Source: a virus. From it: a stretch of 64,000 bases of DNA. The position numbers were made by a program, and so were the translations under genes. A model generated the notes under the pieces. It made no database searches and was not told the origin of the DNA. It worked only from the letters and a program-made list of their open reading frames with translations. Location of the stretch: IMG/VR virus record IMGVR_UViG_3300029989_000005. One strand, written 5' to 3'. Position 1 is the stretch's first letter. Every line of letters starts with the position of its first letter. This document shows, one piece after another, positions 5,988 to 57,018 of this stretch.

Positions 5988-7190
5988 ATGTCTATTGAAA
6001 ATTTTGGTGGTATTTTTAGTACAGAATCGTTTGATTTAGAATTTAAATTCGATAAAGAACTGTTCAATAAAAAGGTGGTTAATGTATTACAGAAAATATT
6101 GGATAAAAAATTCGGTCAGGGATACCAAAAATCAAAAATTATACCCGCCTCCAAAGGGTACAATTTCGCATGTCCTATATGTGGTGATTCTCATACATCT
6201 ACATCAACAAAACGTGGTCACCTGTATTTGAATACTTATTCGTTTAAATGTTACAACGACCATGTTGGTGGAAGTGGATTTATGTCATTGGGTTCGTTTA
6301 TTAAGTTTTTCAATATGCAAGGTGAATTTTCAGAAGAGGAGATTTACTATGTTGACAAAAAATTTGAGGAATTAATAAAGACATATAAAGACAACTCAGG
6401 TAGTACTTTACAAACTATTCAGATGAATGGTATATCTAAAAAGGATTTAGATAACATTTATCAATATATAAAATTGCCTGAAATTAATGAGTATGCTTTC
6501 CCAAGAGAGGAAATAATGAAAGCAATGAGGTTGTCTGAAATTGGTAGGTCTTCAAAAGGATTTGAATATTTAGCCAATAGACAAGTTATAACTCAAAAAA
6601 ATCAATCAACAGCCGAATTTTTGTATAATGATTATTATGATGATCTTTATGTCCTAAATCTTGCATCTGATAAAAAGAATATTATAGGAATGCAAATAAG
6701 ACATTGCTCCCCAAAGGCAAATCCAAAAAGAAGATTTGATAGTTATGTTTGGTCTGACATTTGGAATAAAGTGTTCAAATGTCCTCAATCAGAGGAATTG
6801 TGCCAAAAATTTGATAAACAATCAATGACTTGGAGATTAATGTTTGTGGATTATACAAAGCCTATATATCATTTAGAGGGTGCTATAGATGCTTATTTCC
6901 TACCTAATTCAATAGCATCTTTGGGACTTAGCAATACAATAGAAAATAAACAATGTCTATATATTACTGATAACGATAAAGCGGGTAGAACTAAAGCTAT
7001 AGACTTACTTGAAAAAGGATTTATGGTTTTTAAATGGAAAGAGTATATTGAGGAAATGGAATCTCAAAGATTTTGTGGTATTAGGGATTGTAAAGATATA
7101 AACGATATTGTTAAAAAATTTCCTCAAATAAAATTTGATGCTATAAACAAGCATTTTACCAATAACGAACTTGATGCAATATTCCTTTAA
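5988..7190 (+). CDS. DNA primase (T4 gp61-like)
   Basis: NFACPICGDS zinc finger; TOPRIM motifs LEGAIDA, TDNDKAG and KDINDI. Confidence 0.9.
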   Translation: MSIENFGGIFSTESFDLEFKFDKELFNKKVVNVLQKILDKKFGQGYQKSKIIPASKGYNFACPICGDSHTSTSTKRGHLYLNTYSFKCYNDHVGGSGFMSLGSFIKFFNMQGEFSEEEIYYVDKKFEELIKTYKDNSGSTLQTIQMNGISKKDLDNIYQYIKLPEINEYAFPREEIMKAMRLSEIGRSSKGFEYLANRQVITQKNQSTAEFLYNDYYDDLYVLNLASDKKNIIGMQIRHCSPKANPKRRFDSYVWSDIWNKVFKCPQSEELCQKFDKQSMTWRLMFVDYTKPIYHLEGAIDAYFLPNSIASLGLSNTIENKQCLYITDNDKAGRTKAIDLLEKGFMVFKWKEYIEEMESQRFCGIRDCKDINDIVKKFPQIKFDAINKHFTNNELDAIFL

Positions 7191-7975
7191 TCTTTATTTA
7201 AAATCTGTAATAAATTCTTTCTTAATAATTTACCATCTTTAATCCAATCTGACTCCCATATAACTAATGTTTGGAATTCACTGTTAGGGTTTACCTGTAA
7301 TATGTAGTTATCGTTATTTTCCCAAATTGATTCTGCCGTCAAACCATTTATAACGTCTATTGGGTTATAAATTTTGGGGTTGGCATTTACTTTATCTAAA
7401 AAATAAACTATTATAAATTCATTATTAACTATAATAGATTTGTTATCCAACAATTGTATATTTTTATCATCAAATTTTGATTTCAAAAATCTATGAATCA
7501 TTGTAAATATCAATTTGTTTTTTGTATCTGCAGGATTACACAATGTACATATCACTTTTCCTCTTCTTTTCCTAGTTCTGTAACTTTCAACAGAAATAAT
7601 AAATTCTGATTGACAGAGATTACAAAAACATTTGTAATCAAACTTGGTATGCTTATTTAAAATAGTCATATCAGGTAATTTCCTATATGGTGAAATACAA
7701 TTTATATTATTACATACAGTTGAATACCCATACAAGCCGTTTTTATTGTGATAATTTAACGGTTTACCGCATATTTTACATGAAACATAATCAAAACTGT
7801 TGTTGCTTATATGGTACACTCTCTGAGATAAAGATATGTCATCATACTTTAGGTTCAGAAAAGATGTCAAATTTAATATTTCTTTATATTCTTTTTTCTC
7901 AACAATTATTCTTTTTGCTACAAATTTTGATCTCTTGTACCAATCTACAAGATATTGATTTTTGTTTTCTGACAT
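7187..7975 (-). CDS. Zinc-ribbon protein with a degenerate Vsr/Hef-like homing-endonuclease C-terminus
   Basis: CKICG, CNLC and CTLCNP motifs; C-terminal LVIWESDW; single gene on the opposite strand. Confidence 0.55.
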   Translation of the reverse strand: MSENKNQYLVDWYKRSKFVAKRIIVEKKEYKEILNLTSFLNLKYDDISLSQRVYHISNNSFDYVSCKICGKPLNYHNKNGLYGYSTVCNNINCISPYRKLPDMTILNKHTKFDYKCFCNLCQSEFIISVESYRTRKRRGKVICTLCNPADTKNKLIFTMIHRFLKSKFDDKNIQLLDNKSIIVNNEFIIVYFLDKVNANPKIYNPIDVINGLTAESIWENNDNYILQVNPNSEFQTLVIWESDWIKDGKLLRKNLLQILNKD

Positions 7976-8075
7976 ATATAGTAACTAATTAATTTTACAA
8001 TTTTATACATTCGTATGCTTAGAAGTGTCAATTTGATATAAATTATGTCAGTTTGTCATAATGTCAGTTTATTAT

Positions 8076-8203
8076 AAATTATGTCAGTTTGACAGTTAAA
8101 TTATTAAAAGATGTTAAAATTATGCTTTTTGTGTTAAGGTTTGTTAAAAATTATACGAACTGACATATATAATAATAAATTTGGCACGATTTTTGTAGTA
8201 ATT
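8076..8203 (+). promoter_or_regulatory. Duplicated regulatory cassette, copy 1: TGTCA-N3-TGACA palindrome plus sigma54-like TGGCAC-N5-TTGT
   Basis: Near-identical to 10435-10564; tggcacgatttttgta at 8182-8197; further TGTCA sites at 8026-8070. Confidence 0.7.
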
Positions 8204-8230
8204 TAGGAAATAATTTAAAAAATAGAAATT

Positions 8231-8419
8231 ATGAAAACAATTAAAGACCTTAAAAAATCCGATAAATTCAGTTTTAATAGTACAGTTTATACAGTTTCTA
8301 GAAAATGGATTAATGGTTTATCATCATTAATAGCATATGATAATATGAACGAAAGGTCTGATTTTTATTATGAGGGCTTGGAGGTTGAGGATGTGTCACC
8401 AACTGTCACCAAAATCTGA
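8231..8419 (+). CDS. Hypothetical protein
   Basis: 62 aa; its leader aaaaatagaaattATG is identical to that of the gene at 8475. Confidence 0.65.
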   Translation: MKTIKDLKKSDKFSFNSTVYTVSRKWINGLSSLIAYDNMNERSDFYYEGLEVEDVSPTVTKI

Positions 8420-8474
8420 CAATACATCATTATTACTATTATAAAGGTACTGAATAATTCAAAAAATAGAAATT

Positions 8475-10373
8475 ATGGCTGATTTCAAAGCAAGTAAAGA
8501 TCAACAAGACGTTTTCAATTATATAACTGATTCAAAAGGAAATGCACTCATTCAAGCTGTTGCAGGTTCAGGTAAAACTACAACTATAGTTAAAGCATTG
8601 GATTTAATACCAATTGGCAAGAAGATTGTTTTCATGGCATTCAATAACAGTATAGTTAAAGAAATCAAGAAGAAAGTAGATGAACGCATACATGTAACCA
8701 CATTACATTCTTTCGGTGCTAGAGCCTATGGAAAAGTATATAAATACGAACTTGATGAACTTAAATATTTGAAATTGCTTAATGGAATATTTGCCAAACT
8801 AGATGGCGATGACTCAATTATCAAGATGTTTAATTATAACAAACAAGACCTACCTTTGTTCAATAATTTCGTTATTGAGGATGAAATCAAGAACAGCAAT
8901 TTTGAAAGTTATAAATCAAACATTTTAAAACTTGCTGATCTAGGCAGAGTTAATTTCATAGATATTAAAAACAAAGAAAAGGCTATTGAATCGTTAAACG
9001 CAATTGTAGACAAATATGGAATTGAAATTATAAATGGTGAGGTTGAGAAGGCGTTTTATTTAATAGTAATAGGTGCAAAAATAACCGATAAAATTGATTT
9101 CACAGACCAATTATTCTTACCCGTTCTTTATGATTTAGAAACTTTTAAATTTGATTTTGTATTTGTTGACGAGTGTCAAGATTTGAATACATGTCAAAGA
9201 TTGCTTATGTTGAAATCCAAAAAACAATATGGTAGATTTATTGCTGTTGGTGATAAAAATCAAGCCATATATGGGTTTGCGGGTGCTGATATAGATAGTT
9301 ATAATGAATTAGCTAAATTACCATTTACAAAAATATTACCCTTATCTTGCTGTTATCGTTGTGGTAAAAATATAATCAAGAAGGCTCAAAAAATAGTTCC
9401 TCAAATACAAGCGTTTGAGGGTGCTAAAGATGGAGAGGTTAAGTATGATGGGAAAATAAGTGATATAAAAAGTGGTGATATGGTTTTATGCCGTTGCGTT
9501 TTTCCACTTGTTAAGCTTTGTATGAAATTTTTATCAAAGGGTATTAAGGCTAATTTAATGGGTTCTGACATTTCGGGTCAACTTACTAACTTGATTAAGA
9601 ATCAGGAACGCAAAAGGGAAGAATTTACAATTCAAAATGTGATAAACAGGTTGAATATGGAGCTTAACAAAATTCTAAGCAAAACAGTGGCAAAACATAG
9701 AATATCAGAGAATCAAGCAAAAGCAACAAGCATATATACAACATATGCTGAAAAAATATTGGTAATCCAAGAAATAGCGGGTTCTGAAACAGATGCAAAG
9801 AAAGTAATAATCAAAATAAATTCCATCTTTACAAATGATGATAAAAATGATGGTATTATACTTTCATCCGCTCATAAATCCAAGGGGCTAGAGGCTGATA
9901 GAGTATTTTTAATCAACAACGATAAAATGCCTCTTTCATTCCCAAACATGAAAGATTGGGAAATGGAACAGGAAAAAAACCTTGAATATGTAGCCATAAC
10001 AAGAGCCAAATCATTGCTTAGTTATGTACCATTAGAGGAATTTGATGCATACAATGATGCTGAGATAGTTATAGATAACAATAAACCAAGTGAAATCGAA
10101 CCTAAACATATCGGCAAAATAGGTGATATTGTAAACTTAGTAGGTAAAATAACTGAAATACATGAGGCAATAAGCTCATTTGGCACAAACACTGTTTACA
10201 CAATTGAGGATGAACATGGAAACATATTCGAAAAATGGGGTATTATAAATAAAAGATTTGTTGACTGTAAAACAGAGGCTGTAGAGGGTAGCATGATTTC
10301 ATTTTCGTGTGAAATACGTGCACATAAAGAGTTCAAAGGTGAAAAAAGAAATCAAATTACCAATGTCAAATAA
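8475..10373 (+). CDS. Superfamily 1 (UvrD/Rep-like) DNA helicase with a probable C-terminal OB-fold
   Basis: AVAGSGKTTT, VDECQD, VGDKNQAIYGFAGA, HKSKGLE and YVAITRAK motifs. Confidence 0.92.
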   Translation: MADFKASKDQQDVFNYITDSKGNALIQAVAGSGKTTTIVKALDLIPIGKKIVFMAFNNSIVKEIKKKVDERIHVTTLHSFGARAYGKVYKYELDELKYLKLLNGIFAKLDGDDSIIKMFNYNKQDLPLFNNFVIEDEIKNSNFESYKSNILKLADLGRVNFIDIKNKEKAIESLNAIVDKYGIEIINGEVEKAFYLIVIGAKITDKIDFTDQLFLPVLYDLETFKFDFVFVDECQDLNTCQRLLMLKSKKQYGRFIAVGDKNQAIYGFAGADIDSYNELAKLPFTKILPLSCCYRCGKNIIKKAQKIVPQIQAFEGAKDGEVKYDGKISDIKSGDMVLCRCVFPLVKLCMKFLSKGIKANLMGSDISGQLTNLIKNQERKREEFTIQNVINRLNMELNKILSKTVAKHRISENQAKATSIYTTYAEKILVIQEIAGSETDAKKVIIKINSIFTNDDKNDGIILSSAHKSKGLEADRVFLINNDKMPLSFPNMKDWEMEQEKNLEYVAITRAKSLLSYVPLEEFDAYNDAEIVIDNNKPSEIEPKHIGKIGDIVNLVGKITEIHEAISSFGTNTVYTIEDEHGNIFEKWGIINKRFVDCKTEAVEGSMISFSCEIRAHKEFKGEKRNQITNVK

Positions 10374-10376
10374 ACG

Positions 10377-10426
10377 ACATGACAGGCTGTCAATTTGGCA
10401 GCCTGTCAATTTGGCAGCCTGTCATG
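10377..10426. repeat. 16-bp tandem repeat (ctgtcaatttggcagc x2) inside a catgacaggctg...cagcctgtcatg inverted repeat
   Basis: Read directly from the sequence; could act as both terminator and TGTCA-N3-TGRCA binding array. Confidence 0.75.
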
Positions 10427-10434
10427 CTTGTTGT

Positions 10435-10564
10435 AAATTATGTCATTTTGACAGTTAAATTATTAAAAGATGTTAAAGCTTTGTTTTTGTAGTTAAAGTT
10501 TGTTAAAAATTATACGAATTGACATATATAATAACAAATTTGGCACGATTTTTGCAGTATAATT
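10435..10564 (+). promoter_or_regulatory. Duplicated regulatory cassette, copy 2, with a perfect sigma54 -24/-12 consensus
   Basis: ttggcacgatttttgca at 10540-10556 matches YTGGCACG-N4-TTGCW; tgtcattttgaca lies about 100 bp upstream. Confidence 0.75.
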
Positions 10565-10604
10565 TCTTGAAAACAATTAAGTATTATTAATTATAATTTA
10601 AAAA

Positions 10605-11405
10605 ATGGAAATTATGTTACACGAAAAATTTTATCTAAACTTAATCAGCAAGTCACAAATCACAAGTGCAAATGCTATTTTCTTTAACAAAGCTATGGGA
10701 ACTTTTTTAGTTGCCAAGTCAGGAATCAAAAACAACAGCTTACAGCCTGTTGTAATTACAGCCAATGGTACTATACCCGAAAACGGTGAATATTCAGATG
10801 GTTTTGTTGAATCAACCGATCAATTGGGGGAATATGTAGAATTAATGAATTCTAGCAACAGCGACTTGAATGGTGACCTACTTTATGTCATTGATAACGG
10901 AAAGGGGTCATTACTTGTTGATTTTAGCAATGCTAATGGCGTAGATACAAAATCTGGTGGTTTGATACAATCTATTGATTTGGCTAGCGGTAGTGATTAT
11001 TCGGTTACCAATGAAATCGTAATTACACCAAAATCTAAAGTAGGAACAAAACTTGATGTTGTTCCTAATGATTTCATTAAAGAGGTTATTGACGAAAAAC
11101 CTAAAGCAGAAACAAAGCTTAAAACAAAGGTTGTTAAAACAGCAGTGGCTATCGGTACTATTGCAAATCTTTCAAAACTTGAAGAAACTGTGTTAGCCAA
11201 ATGTATGGATGTTGCGGGGGAAGGTGCAATGAACGCAAACCACACAGGTTTTTCTTTCAGAGTTTGTGAAGGTAACTTATCAATGGCGGGTGCTTTTTCA
11301 ACTCTGCAACGTAAAGGATATATTGAAACATTCGTTGACAAGTTGGATAAACGTAAGGAAAAATTTTTCAGAATTATCAGGGATAAAGATGGAAAACTTT
11401 TGTAG
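10605..11405 (+). CDS. Hypothetical protein with a possible C-terminal winged-helix domain
   Basis: 266 aa; K-rich linker followed by LSKLEETVL...AGAFSTLQRKGYIE. Confidence 0.6.
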   Translation: MEIMLHEKFYLNLISKSQITSANAIFFNKAMGTFLVAKSGIKNNSLQPVVITANGTIPENGEYSDGFVESTDQLGEYVELMNSSNSDLNGDLLYVIDNGKGSLLVDFSNANGVDTKSGGLIQSIDLASGSDYSVTNEIVITPKSKVGTKLDVVPNDFIKEVIDEKPKAETKLKTKVVKTAVAIGTIANLSKLEETVLAKCMDVAGEGAMNANHTGFSFRVCEGNLSMAGAFSTLQRKGYIETFVDKLDKRKEKFFRIIRDKDGKLL

Positions 11406-11428
11406 TTGACAAGTGAAAAAAATCGTTA

Positions 11429-11474
11429 TTATAAAATGTGGGAAAACTTTAAATAGTTTTCCCACATTTTATAA
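11429..11474. terminator. Long hairpin terminator
   Basis: ttataaaatgtgggaaaact / agttttcccacattttataa, 20-bp perfect stem. Confidence 0.75.
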
Positions 11475-11516
11475 ATAATAATATAATTTATAAAACACCA
11501 ATAAACACAACCTATC

Positions 11517-12656
11517 ATGGAGCAAATTAAAAAATCCGTAATTGATTTACTTAATTTTTTGTCATATGATGAAGAATCAAGATTCCTTCCACAAAGTCAA
11601 AGCCTTTACTATAAAAAAATAGGAAAAGCAAGCGTTGAAAAACAATGTGATGAACTTGAAAAAGTTGATTTCACGATTGAATATAACATGAACGGATATT
11701 CGTTTGAATATATTACATTTGCAAGGGATAAGGCTAATGTTTCTTTACGTGTTAAATATGATGGTATAGCTATTTTACCAAAAAATGAATTCGGCTTACA
11801 GACAATCAAAACTTTCATATATCGTGCTTATACTCTAATAAACGATGGAAAATTAAATATAAATGTTTTACCTGTTTTGCCATCCTCCAAATTAATTGAA
11901 TTCTTATCGGATAATCATATTGAATATAAAAAGGATGAAAATATTCAAATGGAGGGTGCTGTAATAATTAATATTGCATCGTTACCAATAATGGATATAT
12001 CATATGAATCAATGGGTGATATAAGTTTCCCAACGTTCACGGCATCAAAATTGGTAAGAATTGAAATGGAATTATTTTGGCTACAATCATTGAGGAAATA
12101 TTTAAAATCTCTGTCTAGCGTACCTTTAGACACACCTTTTAAGCCTACCGTTGAAGTTGATAATTGGCTTAAAAGCATAGGTATTACATCTTACAGCGGA
12201 TATTCACAAAAAACAGAGGCTGCAGAATCTGATAATACTAATTCGTATAAAATTAAAACTTTAAAGACAAAGATTTCTTCATTATCTAACATACCAACGG
12301 TTGAGGCTGTTAATAAAAAAATTGCATCAGGCAAACCATTAACACCATCTGAAAATATATTGAATGATGCAATTAAATGGTTCAATGAATATGTAGCGGA
12401 TGAATTAAAACCGATAAAATCTGAAAAAATTTATAAAACAGTTAGACAGGAACTAATATATCAACAAGAAAAGGAAACCGATTCAAATATAAAATTGAAA
12501 CTTTTCCAAATATCACAAATAGGTTTTTATATATTAACAACAGGGAATTGGTTCGAGGACAAAAAAAGTTTCGAGGACAATACTTTGGAATTTGATTATA
12601 ATGATAAAAAATTTACTGCAACATTTGAATTATCCGAAGATACTGTAAAATTATAA
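11517..12656 (+). CDS. Hypothetical phage protein
   Basis: 379-aa ORF between two hairpins. Confidence 0.7.
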   Translation: MEQIKKSVIDLLNFLSYDEESRFLPQSQSLYYKKIGKASVEKQCDELEKVDFTIEYNMNGYSFEYITFARDKANVSLRVKYDGIAILPKNEFGLQTIKTFIYRAYTLINDGKLNINVLPVLPSSKLIEFLSDNHIEYKKDENIQMEGAVIINIASLPIMDISYESMGDISFPTFTASKLVRIEMELFWLQSLRKYLKSLSSVPLDTPFKPTVEVDNWLKSIGITSYSGYSQKTEAAESDNTNSYKIKTLKTKISSLSNIPTVEAVNKKIASGKPLTPSENILNDAIKWFNEYVADELKPIKSEKIYKTVRQELIYQQEKETDSNIKLKLFQISQIGFYILTTGNWFEDKKSFEDNTLEFDYNDKKFTATFELSEDTVKL

Positions 12657-14225: not shown

Positions 14226-14813
14226 ATGCTTAAAAATTATACTGACAAACAAATATTAGACAGGGTAAAGTTATTACCAAGTTTTAAGGGTATACCAAAA
14301 GGTTATTGGATTGCAGGATTGAGAAGTTTATCAGATACACCAGATCAATATGATGATAAGGCGTATTTATTCAATGGGGAGCTGTTCGTTATGGTTATGC
14401 CAATAACAACCAATCCTGGAGCTTTTGGATTACTTAATTTCTTGACTTTCAATTCAAAAGGTTGTGCTGTAGCATTGGCTGATAATTGGAGTTATAATTG
14501 TTGGCATGGTGGATGGCATAAGGGCAAAATGAAGGCACTTACTCAAATTGGTTCTATTGCATATACAAGGGATAATAATAAGAATATGAAATCTGAAAAC
14601 TATGGTAAAATCTATACTGATATTATTGGATTAAATTTTCATACCTGTTCTTATGAAGGTACTATAGCAAAACTTAAAAATTATTTTGGTAAATTAATTG
14701 GTAAATGGTCTGAGGGGTGTCAAGTTGCCTCAATACCTGAAAAATATTATCAATTTATTGCCGAACCTTACAAACAAATATCTGTAACATATTGTTTGCT
14801 TAAAGAATTTTAA
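14226..14813 (+). CDS. Putative endolysin (YkuD/L,D-transpeptidase-like Cys-His peptidase)
   Basis: GLNFH...WSEGCQV motif; immediately upstream of the holin-like gene. Confidence 0.6.
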   Translation: MLKNYTDKQILDRVKLLPSFKGIPKGYWIAGLRSLSDTPDQYDDKAYLFNGELFVMVMPITTNPGAFGLLNFLTFNSKGCAVALADNWSYNCWHGGWHKGKMKALTQIGSIAYTRDNNKNMKSENYGKIYTDIIGLNFHTCSYEGTIAKLKNYFGKLIGKWSEGCQVASIPEKYYQFIAEPYKQISVTYCLLKEF

Positions 14814-15811: not shown

Positions 15812-15844
15812 GAAACCCGAAGCCTATAACAGATTTCGGGTTTC
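15812..15844 (-). terminator. Terminator after the tail sheath gene
   Basis: gaaacccgaa / ttcgggtttc followed by a T-tract on the minus strand. Confidence 0.7.
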
Positions 15845-29936: not shown

Positions 29937-30434
29937 TTAATTAACATCGCTAACACCGCTAACACCCGATTGATTACCACAATCTTTACAATCTTTACAA
30001 TCTTTACACGAATAACAATTGGTACAATTGGTACAATTGGTACAACCTCTGTCAGCTAAAGAATATTGACCAAGTTTTTCACAATTAGTACAATTTTTGG
30101 AATGGTCAGATTTAATACAATTTTTACAATCATTACAGTGTTGACAATCAGTACAATCAGTACAATTTTTACAAAAATCACAATCTATACAATTAGCACA
30201 ATCAGAACATTGTATACAATTCACACAGTCTTTGCAATTTGTACTACCTGCCGTATCTATACAATTGGTACAGTTCTTTAACTTCGTACTGATATATGTT
30301 GCTTCTCCTTTTTCATATTTGGATTTACTCCATTTATTACCATTATTAGGGTCAACCCAATAATCACCATGTGATTCTAAAATTGTATCATCACTATTTA
30401 TGTTATAACCTTCAAAAATTTTTAATTTCTTCAT
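29937..30434 (-). CDS. Cys-rich (CxxCxxC) repeat protein with an MKKLKIFE leader
   Basis: 26 Cys residues, mostly at period 3. Confidence 0.75.
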   Translation of the reverse strand: MKKLKIFEGYNINSDDTILESHGDYWVDPNNGNKWSKSKYEKGEATYISTKLKNCTNCIDTAGSTNCKDCVNCIQCSDCANCIDCDFCKNCTDCTDCQHCNDCKNCIKSDHSKNCTNCEKLGQYSLADRGCTNCTNCTNCYSCKDCKDCKDCGNQSGVSGVSDVN

Positions 30435-30457
30435 ATTATTTTATATTTTTATATAAT

Positions 30458-42460: not shown

Positions 42461-42838
42461 ATGGATACGATTTTTGAACTTATCAAACCCAATCCAATAC
42501 CTGAATTTATTATTTGTGCTGCAAATTATTATTATGATGGTAATAAACATAATCATATGCCCAAAAATATTGAGGTAGGTTTTGTGATTTGTGGGAGAAG
42601 GCATCATAACTGCATTGCAACATTTGCTCAGTTTATGGGATTTTTTGAAGACAACAAATATAAAGGTGAGGCTATAAAAACTCGTAAAACAGAGGTACAA
42701 GGATTCCTTACAAGCACTGATAGATTTGTTGACCGTAAAGAGGCTTATAAAATAGCATTTGAAGCAAACCAAATTATCGGTCCAAACAAAGGATGCCCTG
42801 AAAATTCAATAGGTCTGACTAGCGAGGACTTGTACTAA
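42461..42838 (+). CDS. Hypothetical phage protein
   Basis: ICAA...GRRHHNC...QGFLTS..RFVDRKEA...SEDLY. Confidence 0.7.
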   Translation: MDTIFELIKPNPIPEFIICAANYYYDGNKHNHMPKNIEVGFVICGRRHHNCIATFAQFMGFFEDNKYKGEAIKTRKTEVQGFLTSTDRFVDRKEAYKIAFEANQIIGPNKGCPENSIGLTSEDLY

Positions 42839-42855
42839 TTTAAAACTTATAAATT

Positions 42856-43533
42856 ATGGAAAAAGATAATATCAAATTTATTGATGGTAAACCATACTTG
42901 ATAACCAAGGCATCCGTATTACCTACAACCGAGGACAACAAAGATAGATTACAAATTTACCGTAATTCAGAAAATAAAAAATTTGTCATAGGATTTATGA
43001 ATGCAAGAAGTACGAAAGATGCACCGCACAGCGTTTATATTACATCCAATGAAAAAATATGTGGTGGTGATAAAGTGCTGCTACACAACAATTGGGTTGT
43101 TGAAGCTGTAGATTTCATAGGTAATATAGGATATAAAGTTTCAAATCGTACTGCTTTTCTAACATTCCAACAAAATGATAGAAAGATTATTACAATTAAG
43201 CCATCGCTTGAATTTATCAAAAAATTAATCTTCTCAGAAATAGAACCATTAAATATTGATGTACTTACAGAACTTACAGGTGGAGGTAAAGAGGAGGTTT
43301 TGCTTCCAACTTGGGATGATGATATAAAAGTAACTTATAACGATATACCATATAAATTGAAGCAAGTTTCAGGTGGCTTCCATGTTATTCATACGTTAAA
43401 AAACAATTGGAATAAAAATGAATTATATGAATTATTTGAAAAAGCCAAGCATGATACGTTACGTATGGATGGATTGTATGATAAGCTTCCTAATGGATGG
43501 GTTGAAAACATACTTTATCAGATAGACAAATAA
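42856..43533 (+). CDS. Hypothetical protein, paralog family member 1
   Basis: Shares IDGK.Y, H.(L/V)Y, KII and PS..FIK blocks with 43538 and 45021. Confidence 0.7.
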   Translation: MEKDNIKFIDGKPYLITKASVLPTTEDNKDRLQIYRNSENKKFVIGFMNARSTKDAPHSVYITSNEKICGGDKVLLHNNWVVEAVDFIGNIGYKVSNRTAFLTFQQNDRKIITIKPSLEFIKKLIFSEIEPLNIDVLTELTGGGKEEVLLPTWDDDIKVTYNDIPYKLKQVSGGFHVIHTLKNNWNKNELYELFEKAKHDTLRMDGLYDKLPNGWVENILYQIDK

Positions 43534-50593: not shown

Positions 50594-50833
50594 TTAACCC
50601 TCATATGGTAGTTTATCTTGTGAGTTCCTTTTAGCCTCATTTTCTCTGTCGGTAATAACTGTTTTATATGCTAGATCAATGCTATCACCTAATCTTACCA
50701 ATGAGTTAAATGTTTTAAGTTCTTCACCCTTAAGTTCAGATTCAACCTGTTCCATAGTCATATCCTCAAAGATATTGATATTTTTATCTGTACCTGATGG
50801 TATATTAGCCTCAAAAATTTTTAACTTTTTCAT
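50594..50833 (-). CDS. Small protein with an MKKLKIFE leader (putative internal head protein)
   Basis: MKKLKIFEA...; late motif at 50836-50848. Confidence 0.7.
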   Translation of the reverse strand: MKKLKIFEANIPSGTDKNINIFEDMTMEQVESELKGEELKTFNSLVRLGDSIDLAYKTVITDRENEAKRNSQDKLPYEG

Positions 50834-50845
50834 ATTTTTAATTAT

Positions 50846-51088
50846 TTATAATTTATCCTGATAACCTTTTTTAAGTTCCTCCAATTTAAGGCATGCATCA
50901 TCTATGATTTCCTGTGCATCCTTTTGAATTTGCTTACCTGTTTCCTTTGTTTCATCAAACATAGCTATTAAATCAGATTTAAATTCAGTACCTATATTCT
51001 TGAAATCCGATTTTATCCCATCTATGAAATCCTTGAAAATGTTTACACTTTCATTAACAGGTTTATTCAGTGTGTTAGATTTTTTCAT
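50846..51088 (-). CDS. Small protein with a VNES motif (putative internal head protein)
   Basis: MKKSNTLNKPVNES... Confidence 0.6.
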   Translation of the reverse strand: MKKSNTLNKPVNESVNIFKDFIDGIKSDFKNIGTEFKSDLIAMFDETKETGKQIQKDAQEIIDDACLKLEELKKGYQDKL

Positions 51089-51592: not shown

Positions 51593-51949
51593 TTATCTCT
51601 TGGTAAGTATTATTGAGTAAGTATTATCAGATGAATCAGTACTTGTAATTTCAATCTTTTTTCCATCATCAGATTTAACTTTCCAATTGTTATATCCAAG
51701 ACCTGAATCATTAAGTGCTTTGGCAACAGATTTTCCATTATCCTCAGCACCTGTAATTACTATTTCTACAGCTGATGCCATATCCTTTGAACCTGTATTT
51801 TCCAACTGAGGAAATTTTGCCTCTCTCATGTTATCGGATAAATTGAATCCAAAACTTGATAAAGCAGCATTTGTACCACTTGATATACGCCAATTATCTC
51901 CAATAACTGATTCATTTATTTTGCTTTCAAAAACTTTTGACTTTTTCAT
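51593..51949 (-). CDS. Small protein with an MKKSKVFESKINES leader (putative internal head protein)
   Basis: Two tandem xxES motifs at the N-terminus. Confidence 0.7.
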   Translation of the reverse strand: MKKSKVFESKINESVIGDNWRISSGTNAALSSFGFNLSDNMREAKFPQLENTGSKDMASAVEIVITGAEDNGKSVAKALNDSGLGYNNWKVKSDDGKKIEITSTDSSDNTYSIILTKR

Positions 51950-52175
51950 ATTGTATATTTATTTTATTATTTTTATAATCTGTGTAAAGACCTTTGCCAT
52001 AATATGTCCAACTTTCTATTAATTTTGGACTCTGATTAAATTTACCAACTAATTGTTCTGTTGTCATTTGCTTGGTTTCAGTCATTATGTAACAATAAAC
52101 TGTATTCCTTTCCAAGGTGGTTAACTTACTGAATTCATTGGTATCGAAAAATGACAATAATTGTGAATTTTCCAT
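51927..52175 (-). CDS. HTH-like protein, paralog of 52175..52450
   Basis: LTTLERNTVYCYIM.E...MT...W...G.GLY. Confidence 0.6.
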   Translation of the reverse strand: MENSQLLSFFDTNEFSKLTTLERNTVYCYIMTETKQMTTEQLVGKFNQSPKLIESWTYYGKGLYTDYKNNKINIQYEKVKSF

Positions 52176-52450
52176 TACATAAATGCGTTTTGAGGTTTGA
52201 ACATTATATCAGGATTTATTTTATTTTCAGAGTATAATCCAATACCATGTTCAACCCAACCACGTGCCAAATTTAGTGAAATATCTAATTTCTTGGCTAC
52301 ATCGGCTAATGTCATTTTACCTGATTCAATCATAATATAACTATAAACAATATTTCTCTTTAATGATGTTAATTGTTTATAATTATCAGATTTTAGGAAT
52401 AACAACATTGTATTGTATTCACCCGATTCAAATATCTTAAGCTTTTTCAT
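52175..52450 (-). CDS. Sigma-region-4-like HTH protein with an MKKLKIFE leader
   Basis: LTSLKRNIV...MTLADVAKKLDISLNLARGW. Confidence 0.6.
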   Translation of the reverse strand: MKKLKIFESGEYNTMLLFLKSDNYKQLTSLKRNIVYSYIMIESGKMTLADVAKKLDISLNLARGWVEHGIGLYSENKINPDIMFKPQNAFM

Positions 52451-52451
52451 A

Positions 52452-52802
52452 TTAAAATAAACCCTCTATTGATCTATAACCCTCGTTTGTTATTTTATAT
52501 AGTTCAAATTCCTCACCTTTCACTTTGAACATACATTCAAAAAGCATACCATCGTTGTTGACACCAAAATAATAATCATTACTAATTTTGACGTGATCTA
52601 AAATGGTAGAAATTTGACCAAGCCCATAATGACCCTTGATTACAAAATCAACATGGTCTATGTTCATACAGCTAATATAGAATTCAAATATTTCATCCAT
52701 ATTAGCTGTACTCAGAAATTCCACAACTTTCTGAGATTCATTAGACAGCTTAGCCGATTCATATATTCTATTGGTTTCCAAGTCCTCAGGTGCGTTATAC
52801 AT
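52452..52802 (-). CDS. Hypothetical protein with an N-terminal RIYES motif
   Basis: Late motif at 52808-52820. Confidence 0.6.
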   Translation of the reverse strand: MYNAPEDLETNRIYESAKLSNESQKVVEFLSTANMDEIFEFYISCMNIDHVDFVIKGHYGLGQISTILDHVKISNDYYFGVNNDGMLFECMFKVKGEEFELYKITNEGYRSIEGLF

Positions 52803-53218: not shown

Positions 53219-53476
53219 TTAAAATGTTGTTGTTAACTTATCTTTGTCAATATATAATATTTCAAGATTTGGGTCATTTGAGGCATTACAATATGTAAGT
53301 TCTGATAATACTATACTGACTTGATTAAGTGCTGAATTCCAAGGAAACGTATACTGATGATTATTGCTATCTTTAGGAATAACAATAACATTACATGTAA
53401 TCAAGTGACCTTTATCATGAGATTCATTAGAAAAGCATCCAAATCCATGTATATTAGATTCTTTTATATATAACAT
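53219..53476 (-). pseudogene. C-terminally truncated SET-domain-like gene
   Basis: LYIKESNIHGFGCFS...YCNASNDPN; stops before the DI..GEE...Y motif. Confidence 0.6.
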
Positions 53477-56657: not shown

Positions 56658-57018
56658 TTAGTATTTTTTTTGATTTATTAAACCATTGAAACCGTTTAAT
56701 ATATTGAATGTGGGGATGAACTTACATTCAATATTTTTTATACATTTAAAAGTCATTGTTAATTTATCCCTATCTATGGAGAGTATTTTTAAATTAGGAC
56801 TTATAAATGACGAATTACAATATGAAAGTTCTGATAATGCTATACTTACCTGATTAAGTGAGGAATTCCAAGGGAATAAATATTGATTATTGTTGTAAGA
56901 TTTGGAAATTATTATAACGTTACATACTATTTTAGAACCTACTTTAATTTTTCTTACTTGAAAAACAGCCAAATCCGTGTCTATCAGATTTGGCAACATA
57001 TAAGCCATTATGATTCAT
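56658..57018 (-). pseudogene. Frameshifted SET-domain-like gene, paralog of 53219..53476
   Basis: ATG at 57018 gives MNHNGLYVAKSDRHGFGCFSSKK; one extra A in the run at 56948-56952 shifts the frame relative to IKVGSKIVCNVIII... Confidence 0.7.

Follow-up and report, generated by a model that had tools for sequence, protein, structure and literature searches.

Sigma-54-type promoter cassettes of a large phage, probably laid out on the plan of Bacteroidota chaperone promoters

A duplicated intergenic segment was analysed in a window of 64,000 nt (the whole stretch of DNA under study) from the IMG/VR virus record IMGVR_UViG_3300029989_000005, here called G000. The complete record has 90,251 bp, is linear, has a G+C content of 30% and is about 52% complete. 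The two segments likely belong to a set of four phage promoter cassettes that follow the plan of host heat-shock (chaperone) promoters, with a sigma-54-type core preceded by TGACA/TGTCA half-sites. Through these cassettes, the expression of some phage genes is probably coupled to the host stress machinery. All of the evidence for this reading comes from sequence comparison.

Architecture of the cassettes

As a first-pass annotation of the window had described, two intergenic segments are near-identical: positions 8069–8200 and 10428–10559 share 89% identity over 132 nt without gaps. That annotation had also proposed a motif scan of the whole genome, and the scan revealed two further copies on the opposite strand (G000:C1:1315 and 4126), beyond the limits of the window, so that G000 contains four cassettes. 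The core, the proximal half-site, the GTTAA spacer and the distal half-site cluster are common to all four, and the GTTAA tracts noted earlier were seen in both window copies. Each of the four cassettes is co-oriented with the next gene, the start codon of which follows 49–64 nt after the TGG of the core (49 nt for copy 1 and 64 nt for copy 2, counted from the T of TGG). Measured from the end of the core, the start codons of copies 1 and 2 lie at 34 and 49 nt, in agreement with the 35–50 nt first reported. The same A-rich leader precedes the start codon at all four cassettes. The parts of the two window copies are as follows.

8026–8094, plus strand: distal array of copy 1, consisting of TGTCA/TGACA half-sites and ending in an exact palindrome TGTCA-N3-TGACA (8082–8094)
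8095–8157, plus strand: AT-rich spacer of copy 1 with repeated GTTAA, kept in 4/4 G000 cassettes but not in the related records G001 and G002
8158–8165, plus strand: proximal half-site of copy 1, AACTGACA, ending 16 nt before TGG
8181–8197, plus strand: sigma-54-type core of copy 1, the 17-mer TTGGCACGATTTTTGTA, with GG at 8183–8184, G at 8195 and T for C at 8196
8198–8230, plus strand: leader of copy 1, with a transcription start predicted near 8207–8209 from the -24/-12 geometry and a conserved A-rich stretch before the ATG
10380–10453, plus strand: distal array of copy 2, with half-sites of alternating orientation 8 bp apart and an exact palindrome (10441–10453)
10454–10518, plus strand: GTTAA-tract spacer of copy 2
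10519–10524, plus strand: proximal half-site of copy 2, TTGACA, ending 16 nt before TGG
10540–10556, plus strand: sigma-54-type core of copy 2, an exact TGGCACG-N4-TTGC, with GG at 10542–10543 and GC at 10554–10555
10557–10604, plus strand: leader of copy 2, with a transcription start predicted near 10566–10568

Besides the exact palindromes TGTCA-N3-TGACA at 8082–8094 and 10441–10453, palindrome sites with one mismatch lie at 8026, 8046, 8054, 10388 and 10404. Tandem arrays cover 8026–8092 and 10383–10424, the latter made of 2.6 copies of a 16-nt unit. The one-mismatch sites and the tandem arrays bear out the earlier statement that extra sites are stacked upstream of both copies. The window contains 10 palindrome-like matches where 2.95 would be expected, a count not attained in any of 100 shuffles. 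The four cassettes are the only places in G000 with five or more TGACA/TGTCA sites per 150 nt.

Two further features of the window resemble parts of the cassette. A 25-nt A-rich leader ending in the start codon, and lacking a Shine-Dalgarno sequence, is common to four genes (8209–8233, 8453–8477, 10592–10616 and 42834–42858), three of which stand behind cassettes. A partial third copy of the cassette segment (81%), with a proximal ACTGACA half-site, was seen at 14230–14256, at the start of the gene at 14226.

Core and upstream sites in phages and Bacteroidota

The core of copy 1, TGGCACGATTTTTGT at 8182–8196, has one mismatch to TGGCACG-N4-TTGC, and that of copy 2, TGGCACGATTTTTGC at 10541–10555, has none, so the claim that copy 2 is an exact sigma-54 consensus was correct. 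The full GC is present in copy 2 only, with GT in the other G000 copies. A megablast search of positions 7000–12000 against GenBank phages gave no match, and a search for related loci with the helicase encoded behind copy 1 gave no relative. It was the motif that led to relatives: viral contigs scanned for the core included two large related records, G001 (135.8 kb) and G002 (126.6 kb), in each of which the core 15-mer is present 4–7 times. An nhmmer profile search of G000, G001 and G002 returned 18 sites at 23.6–35.7 bits, the next best match having 10 bits. GG-N10-G is present in 4/4 G000 copies and in 18/18 sites of the three records. Poor conservation of this spacing in related phages had been named in the first-pass annotation as grounds for rejecting a sigma-54 promoter; the spacing is conserved, and the sites form a discrete family with nothing intermediate. 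A pattern scan gave 8–12 real matches per record, compared with 0–2 per strand, and at most 3 per record, for the reversed-pattern control. The flanks have diverged among G000, G001 and G002, and the constant part reaches from the T before GG to just beyond the -12 position. Each of the seven G001 copies carries a TGACA-N3-TGTCA palindrome whose end lies exactly 12 nt before TGG.

The same 15-mer was found in five complete phages of about 150 kb, again with adjoining TGACA palindromes, and in a 339-kb phage. In a 363-kb phage (G009) it occurs 22 times when up to two mismatches are allowed. Some of these copies precede tRNA genes (L091, L100 and L105), where the sigma-54-type cores stand directly before the gene, without TGACA sites nearby.

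The exact 17-mer occurs at at least 120 places in a set of species-representative bacterial genomes, and Bacteroidota account for about 49 of the 80 matches listed. The genes next to it in the listed Bacteroidota encode two Clp-family AAA+ chaperones (clpB/clpC-type), GroES and GrpE, and also an Fe/Mn superoxide dismutase, the ribosome hibernation factor HPF, an OmpR-type response regulator and MacB/FtsX permeases. In one Chitinophagales genome the 15-mer occurs 29 times when up to one mismatch is allowed, and the control gave 0.

To look for the motif pair before host chaperone genes, as had been proposed, 75 groES loci from Chitinophagales, Flavobacteriales, Cytophagales and Bacteroidales were sampled. 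A TGGYAYR element was present 57–139 nt upstream in 63 of the 75; the core was taken as the last TGGYAYR within 150 nt, for which chance would give about 14% against the 84% observed. A G stands exactly 10 nt after GG in 63/63 of these cores, and the search pattern did not include that G. The base after it is A in 27, C in 25 and T in 10. The hosts, too, therefore lack a conserved C at -12, and the geometry is that of sigma-54.

TGACA/TGTCA sites are likewise enriched before host groES cores. In the 180 nt before the core their density is 10.9/kb at the 63 host promoters compared with a host background of 1.8/kb (about 6-fold), and 24.7/kb before the phage cassettes compared with 2.1/kb in phage genomes (12-fold). 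The 8-mer AACTGACA reaches 1.50/kb before host groES cores against a background of 0.02/kb (about 70-fold), and 3.70/kb before phage cassettes against 0.07/kb in phage genomes (about 50-fold). The flank preferences of the half-sites are similar in hosts and phages, with T favoured four bases past the half-site, and a proximal site 12–14 nt before TGG is frequent in host promoters, as it is in phages. The promoter of a Chitinophagales hsp20–groES–groEL operon contains the very palindrome of 10441–10453, and a host dnaK promoter carries four TGACA-type half-sites. Host promoters of mixed function that share the exact core have 2.7 TGACA/TGTCA sites per kb and show no enrichment; the TGACA sites therefore mark the chaperone subset. 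A k-mer enrichment upstream of these mixed promoters gave genome-specific repeats only. We had first concluded that the TGACA sites were phage-specific, which was overturned by the hsp20–groESL and dnaK hits and then by the groES sampling. From the shared enrichment and flank preferences it follows that the cassette appears to copy a regulon-specific host chaperone element and not the sigma-54 core alone.

A different upstream element was seen with the same 17-mer core in a Bacteroides sp. metagenome-assembled genome (L200), where the palindrome GATACGTATC occurs three times, about 40–100 nt before the sigma-54 core of a Clp-family chaperone gene.

Published data on Bacteroidota promoters agree with this assignment. 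Guerin et al. 2021 (PMC9723704) used mapped 5' ends to assign motif SM4 of Flavobacterium psychrophilum to sigma-54; groESL, protease genes and the remFG–sprCDBF operon are driven by it, and mutagenesis confirmed the remF promoter. The SM4 sites in the supplementary table include TGGCACGATTTTAGT, and several have T at -12. The phage core matches these promoters with mapped transcription start sites. In a 2025 survey based on position-specific scoring matrices (PMC12316311), GroEL/ES, GrpE, DnaK/J, IbpA and Clp/Lon were enriched in predicted Bacteroidota sigma-54 regulons, and transcription of grpE and groES was stated to be sigma-54-dependent in Bacteroides thetaiotaomicron. The second promoter motif of B. 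thetaiotaomicron, PM2, was considered and is a different thing from this core. No description of the upstream TGACA element was found in the available parts of PMC9723704 or PMC12316311. The geometry of the core, its presence before host chaperone genes and its match to SM4 all uphold the first-pass assignment to the sigma-54 type.

Proposed mechanism and alternative explanations

Host RNA polymerase with sigma-54 (RpoN) would bind the core through GG at -25/-24 and TG at -14/-13 and form a closed complex, and transcription would start about 25 nt downstream of GG, near 8208 and 10567. The TGACA/TGTCA half-sites would be bound by the same host protein as at the chaperone promoters, at a distal array about 75–135 nt before the core and at the proximal site. 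This protein may be the sigma-54 activator ATPase of the heat-shock regulon, or else a regulon-specific repressor or response regulator; we favour an activator by a narrow margin. In G000 the distal arrays lie at about the usual distance of activator sites, the proximal site lies 16 nt before TGG, and the distal array, GTTAA spacer and core would correspond to the usual layout of enhancer, bend and promoter. Four operons would thus be switched on through the host proteotoxic-stress circuit without a phage-made sigma-54 or activator: the helicase operon, the operon from 10605 and two operons outside the window, one of them with a putative phage sigma factor. The idea that the phage drives operons from host sigma-54, perhaps by mimicking a host stress regulon, had already been put forward for the two window copies; the core and the TGACA sites shared with host chaperone promoters speak for it.

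The first-pass annotation saw no activator gene in the window, and a search for rpoN and activator homologues found none in G000. The RpoN DNA-binding domain (PF04552) had no match in G000, G001 or G002. The sigma-54 activator domain (PF00158) had no match in G000 and gave no more than sub-threshold matches in G001 and G002; these weak matches were rejected as activators, being a PIF1 helicase and an ABC/SMC-type ATPase. Neither domain was matched in the five complete 150-kb phages sharing the core and the TGACA palindromes. PF00158 matches in the jumbo phages G008 and G009 (open reading frames (ORFs) of 832–848 amino acids) were taken for Clp-type chaperones because the same model gives 42 bits for a host Clp-family protein of comparable length. 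Five sampled Bacteroidota genomes were also searched; four have one rpoN, and all five have 1–7 activators. In two sampled host genomes a sigma-54 activator gene lies 4–7 kb from groES (G438:C5:8687–9187 with groES at 15831, and G021:C4:125531–126031 with groES at 121577) and is a candidate activator of the chaperone regulon.

Several points weigh against a cassette read by host sigma-54 and the host chaperone regulator. Three of the four copies have T instead of the canonical C at -12, an objection softened by the host groES data. Among the phages, the sequence separating the -24 and -12 elements hardly varies, and we know of no sigma-54 requirement for such conservation. The record is about 52% complete, and a phage activator could therefore lie in the missing half; the five complete activator-free phages are tied to this phage by the shared motif and not by demonstrated kinship. 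Base counts from the phage core sets outside G000–G002 are biased, since the motif served to gather those sets. It is from the distribution of the motif alone that a Bacteroidota host is deduced. Many half-sites lie nearer to the core than is usual for classical enhancers: all G000 and G001 copies have one 12–16 nt before TGG, and host half-sites extend right up to the core. At such a distance a repressor or a class-I/II-type factor could act as readily as an activator. A textbook enhancer would lie farther from the predicted start than the proximal site does, and farther than the G001 palindrome with its centre about 45 nt before that start; both would fit a repressor equally. According to PMC3646045, the OmpR-family protein RprY of Porphyromonas gingivalis occupies the promoters of groES, clpB and dnaK and acts like a repressor. 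A search for its binding motif yielded primers only, and no site was found in the available text of that paper.

The alternative that survives best, although we consider it improbable, is that the core is a host sigma-54 promoter and the TGACA arrays are bound by a phage protein, such as an early repressor or a non-canonical activator, the likeness to the host element being incidental. The higher site density in phages than in hosts would fit such a protein, and so would the single fixed distance of the G001 palindrome, which is tighter than in hosts. Strict-pattern scans of host samples were also at chance level, with 10 hits versus 6 in the control (401 genomes) and 2 versus 2 (101 genomes). 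However, both hits of the 101-genome scan stand before heat-shock genes, namely hsp20–groESL and dnaK, and the extended 8-mer and flank preferences are shared with 63 host groES promoters. A search of the small proteins behind the cassettes against Pfam and PHROGs gave no DNA-binding candidate, which also counts against a phage-encoded reader.

Less probable still is recognition of the whole block by a phage sigma factor, either a 497-amino-acid MORN-repeat protein encoded behind copy 3 or a small G002 protein matching Sigma70_r2, the likeness to sigma-54 promoters being no more than that. The relatives do encode sigma-70-family proteins, and the invariant spacer suggests recognition of the whole 15-mer. 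Residues 199–482 of the MORN protein match a 339-amino-acid G002 ORF with a weak Sigma70_r2 match. The top PDB hits of a three-sequence profile of the MORN protein were extracytoplasmic function (ECF) sigma factors; these hits are weak (E 0.03) and fall on stretches in regions 2 and 4. On the other hand, the motif is not phage-specific, being abundant in bacterial genomes: the same 17-mer stands before chaperone genes in many bacteria, and the Chitinophagales genome described above holds its 29 copies of the 15-mer. The conserved elements are one helical turn apart, compared with the -35/-10 spacing of about 17 nt in the sigma-70 family, no -10-like element is conserved across G000, G001 and G002, and a sigma gene placed behind its own target could not get started. 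A search for a T7-type polymerase gave no match; the positive control also gave none, which makes the search uninformative. It is possible that the MORN protein is a phage sigma factor expressed from a host-type sigma-54 promoter.

An ordinary Bacteroidota housekeeping promoter (-33 TTTG and -7 TAnnTTTG) is very unlikely. It could use TAAATTTG at 8176–8183 in copy 1, an exact TAnnTTTG, or the T-run ending in G inside the core, which contains nAnnTTTG. A start site behind TAAATTTG would, according to the first-pass annotation, have spoken against sigma-54; this box is conserved neither among the copies nor in the relatives, reading CAAATTTG in the other three copies and unrelated bases in G001 and G002. 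No TTTG is present 19–21 nt upstream of either candidate box, and in F. psychrophilum the GG lies about 21–27 nt before the presumed 5' end versus about 17 nt predicted for a -7 box, the register of the 61-nt strings being unconfirmed. The least probable alternative is that the cassettes are iteron-type replication or packaging sites standing before genes by chance: short-repeat arrays beside an AT-rich bent segment are typical of origins, but the four copies are always co-oriented, 49–64 nt before a gene and followed by a conserved translation leader, and host groES and dnaK have the same arrangement upstream.

Beyond the cassettes of G000, there may be a phylum-wide Bacteroidota heat-shock code, made of the sigma-54 core and arrays of AACTGACA-type half-sites, that several large lytic phage lineages have copied whole, so that part of the phage programme would be gated by the proteotoxic-stress sensor of the host and not by a phage factor; we give this wider proposal about an even chance. 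No description of such a code was found in the papers examined, and no publication that connects sigma-54 with Bacteroidota phages came up in our literature searches. What is new is a low-copy cassette that includes regulator sites, these sites being the same element as before host groES and dnaK across four orders.

Genes behind the cassettes and comparison with known systems

The genes behind the two window copies are listed here.

8231–8419, plus strand: first gene behind copy 1, 62 amino acids, no family match
8475–10373, plus strand: second gene behind copy 1, a UvrD-type superfamily-1 DNA helicase of 632 amino acids
10605–14813, plus strand: co-oriented run of five genes behind copy 2

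The products of the run behind copy 2 are a protein of 266 amino acids without known function, one of 379 amino acids (phrog_2426), one of 219 amino acids also without known function, one of 267 amino acids with a weak match to baseplate-hub/tail-lysozyme proteins and, last, an endolysin-like protein of 195 amino acids. Behind copy 3, outside the window, three small ORFs precede the 497-amino-acid protein (L001:2191–3684, G000:C1), the MORN repeats of which are C-terminal. This protein and a 499-amino-acid protein behind a G002 cassette were compared as possible homologues and are not homologous. In G001 and G002 the genes behind cassettes are mostly unknown small ORFs, together with a PIF1 helicase, a leucine-rich-repeat protein and an AAA+ protease-like ATPase. 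The gene content driven by the cassettes looks non-structural and of early or middle type, the timing being deduced from gene content.

Four phages encode Cpn10/GroES-like proteins of their own (G001, G002, G003 and G007; L343–L346), with a weak match in G000 at G000:C1:54020–54169; none of these genes stands directly behind a cassette. Other repeats of the window are separate from the cassettes. A second duplicated pair of 118 nt, 79% identical and unrelated to the cassette, lies at 53279–53396 and 56808–56925. In the intergenic region 30006–30289, a 29-nt unit composed of 9-nt ACAATTGGT-like repeats occurs six times and has an iteron-like look. A repeat family covers the starts of several minus-strand genes (30404–30451, 50803–50850, 51919–51966 and 52428–52453). 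These genes share their first codons (MKKLKIF...), perhaps encoding a common N-terminal targeting or processing peptide, and two of the MKKLKIF-type genes (51927–52175 and 52175–52450) had no match in Pfam.

If the proposed mechanism is true, these cassettes show concretely how a virulent phage can connect its operons to a host stress regulon, namely by reproducing the promoter together with the regulator sites. They would, moreover, account for the ability of large phages that lack a polymerase of their own to run non-structural genes in hosts with rather different housekeeping promoters. To our knowledge, Bacteroidota are a phylum without sigma-32, and the shared cis-element of their chaperone promoters could help to find the heat-shock regulator of the phylum. 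For uncultured phages the cassette motif offers a sequence-based hint to the host phylum. If the phylum-wide code is true, the phage would sense the physiological state of the cell through the sigma-54 activator of the host.

Enhancer-dependent sigma-54 promoters such as glnAp2, pspA and nifH have the consensus TGGCACG-N4-TTGC, and their upstream activator sites are usually 80–150 bp from the start. The cassettes share with them GG-N10-G(C), repeated dyad sites upstream and, in G000, an AT-rich and possibly bent segment in between. They differ in that one of the sites lies only 12–16 nt before the core and in that 3/4 copies have T for C at -12.

Also akin to the cassettes are the SM4 promoters of chaperone, protease and gliding genes in F. 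psychrophilum (PMC9723704) and the predicted Bacteroidota chaperone sigma-54 regulon (PMC12316311), which have the same core including the T-rich spacer, frequently a base other than C at -12, and groES, grpE and clpB as their class of host genes. In contrast, the promoters described here belong to a lytic phage, where they drive a helicase gene and genes without known function. The P. gingivalis chaperone promoters bound by RprY (PMC3646045) show a Bacteroidota regulator at groES, clpB and dnaK; RprY is a candidate reader of TGACA, a link that is a guess.

Among phages, a sigma-54-like promoter has been published for Pseudomonas phage YuA (Ceyssens et al. 2008, cited and re-mapped in PMC10914365). 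The first-pass annotation had called the strategy unusual for a lytic T4-like phage, and this precedent tempers the claim. Like YuA, the phage studied here would be a lytic one that lacks its own polymerase and uses a host sigma-54-type promoter; YuA has one such promoter and a proteobacterial host, whereas here a multi-copy cassette also appears to copy the upstream element specific to a host regulon.

Phage T4 transcribes its early and middle genes from promoters that depend first on host sigma-70 and then on appropriation by MotA/AsiA. As in T4, a large phage would rely on the host polymerase, with strongly conserved multi-copy promoters before non-structural genes. Unlike in T4, the sigma family is a different one, no sign of a phage-made appropriator was seen, and the regulation has apparently been borrowed whole from a host regulon.

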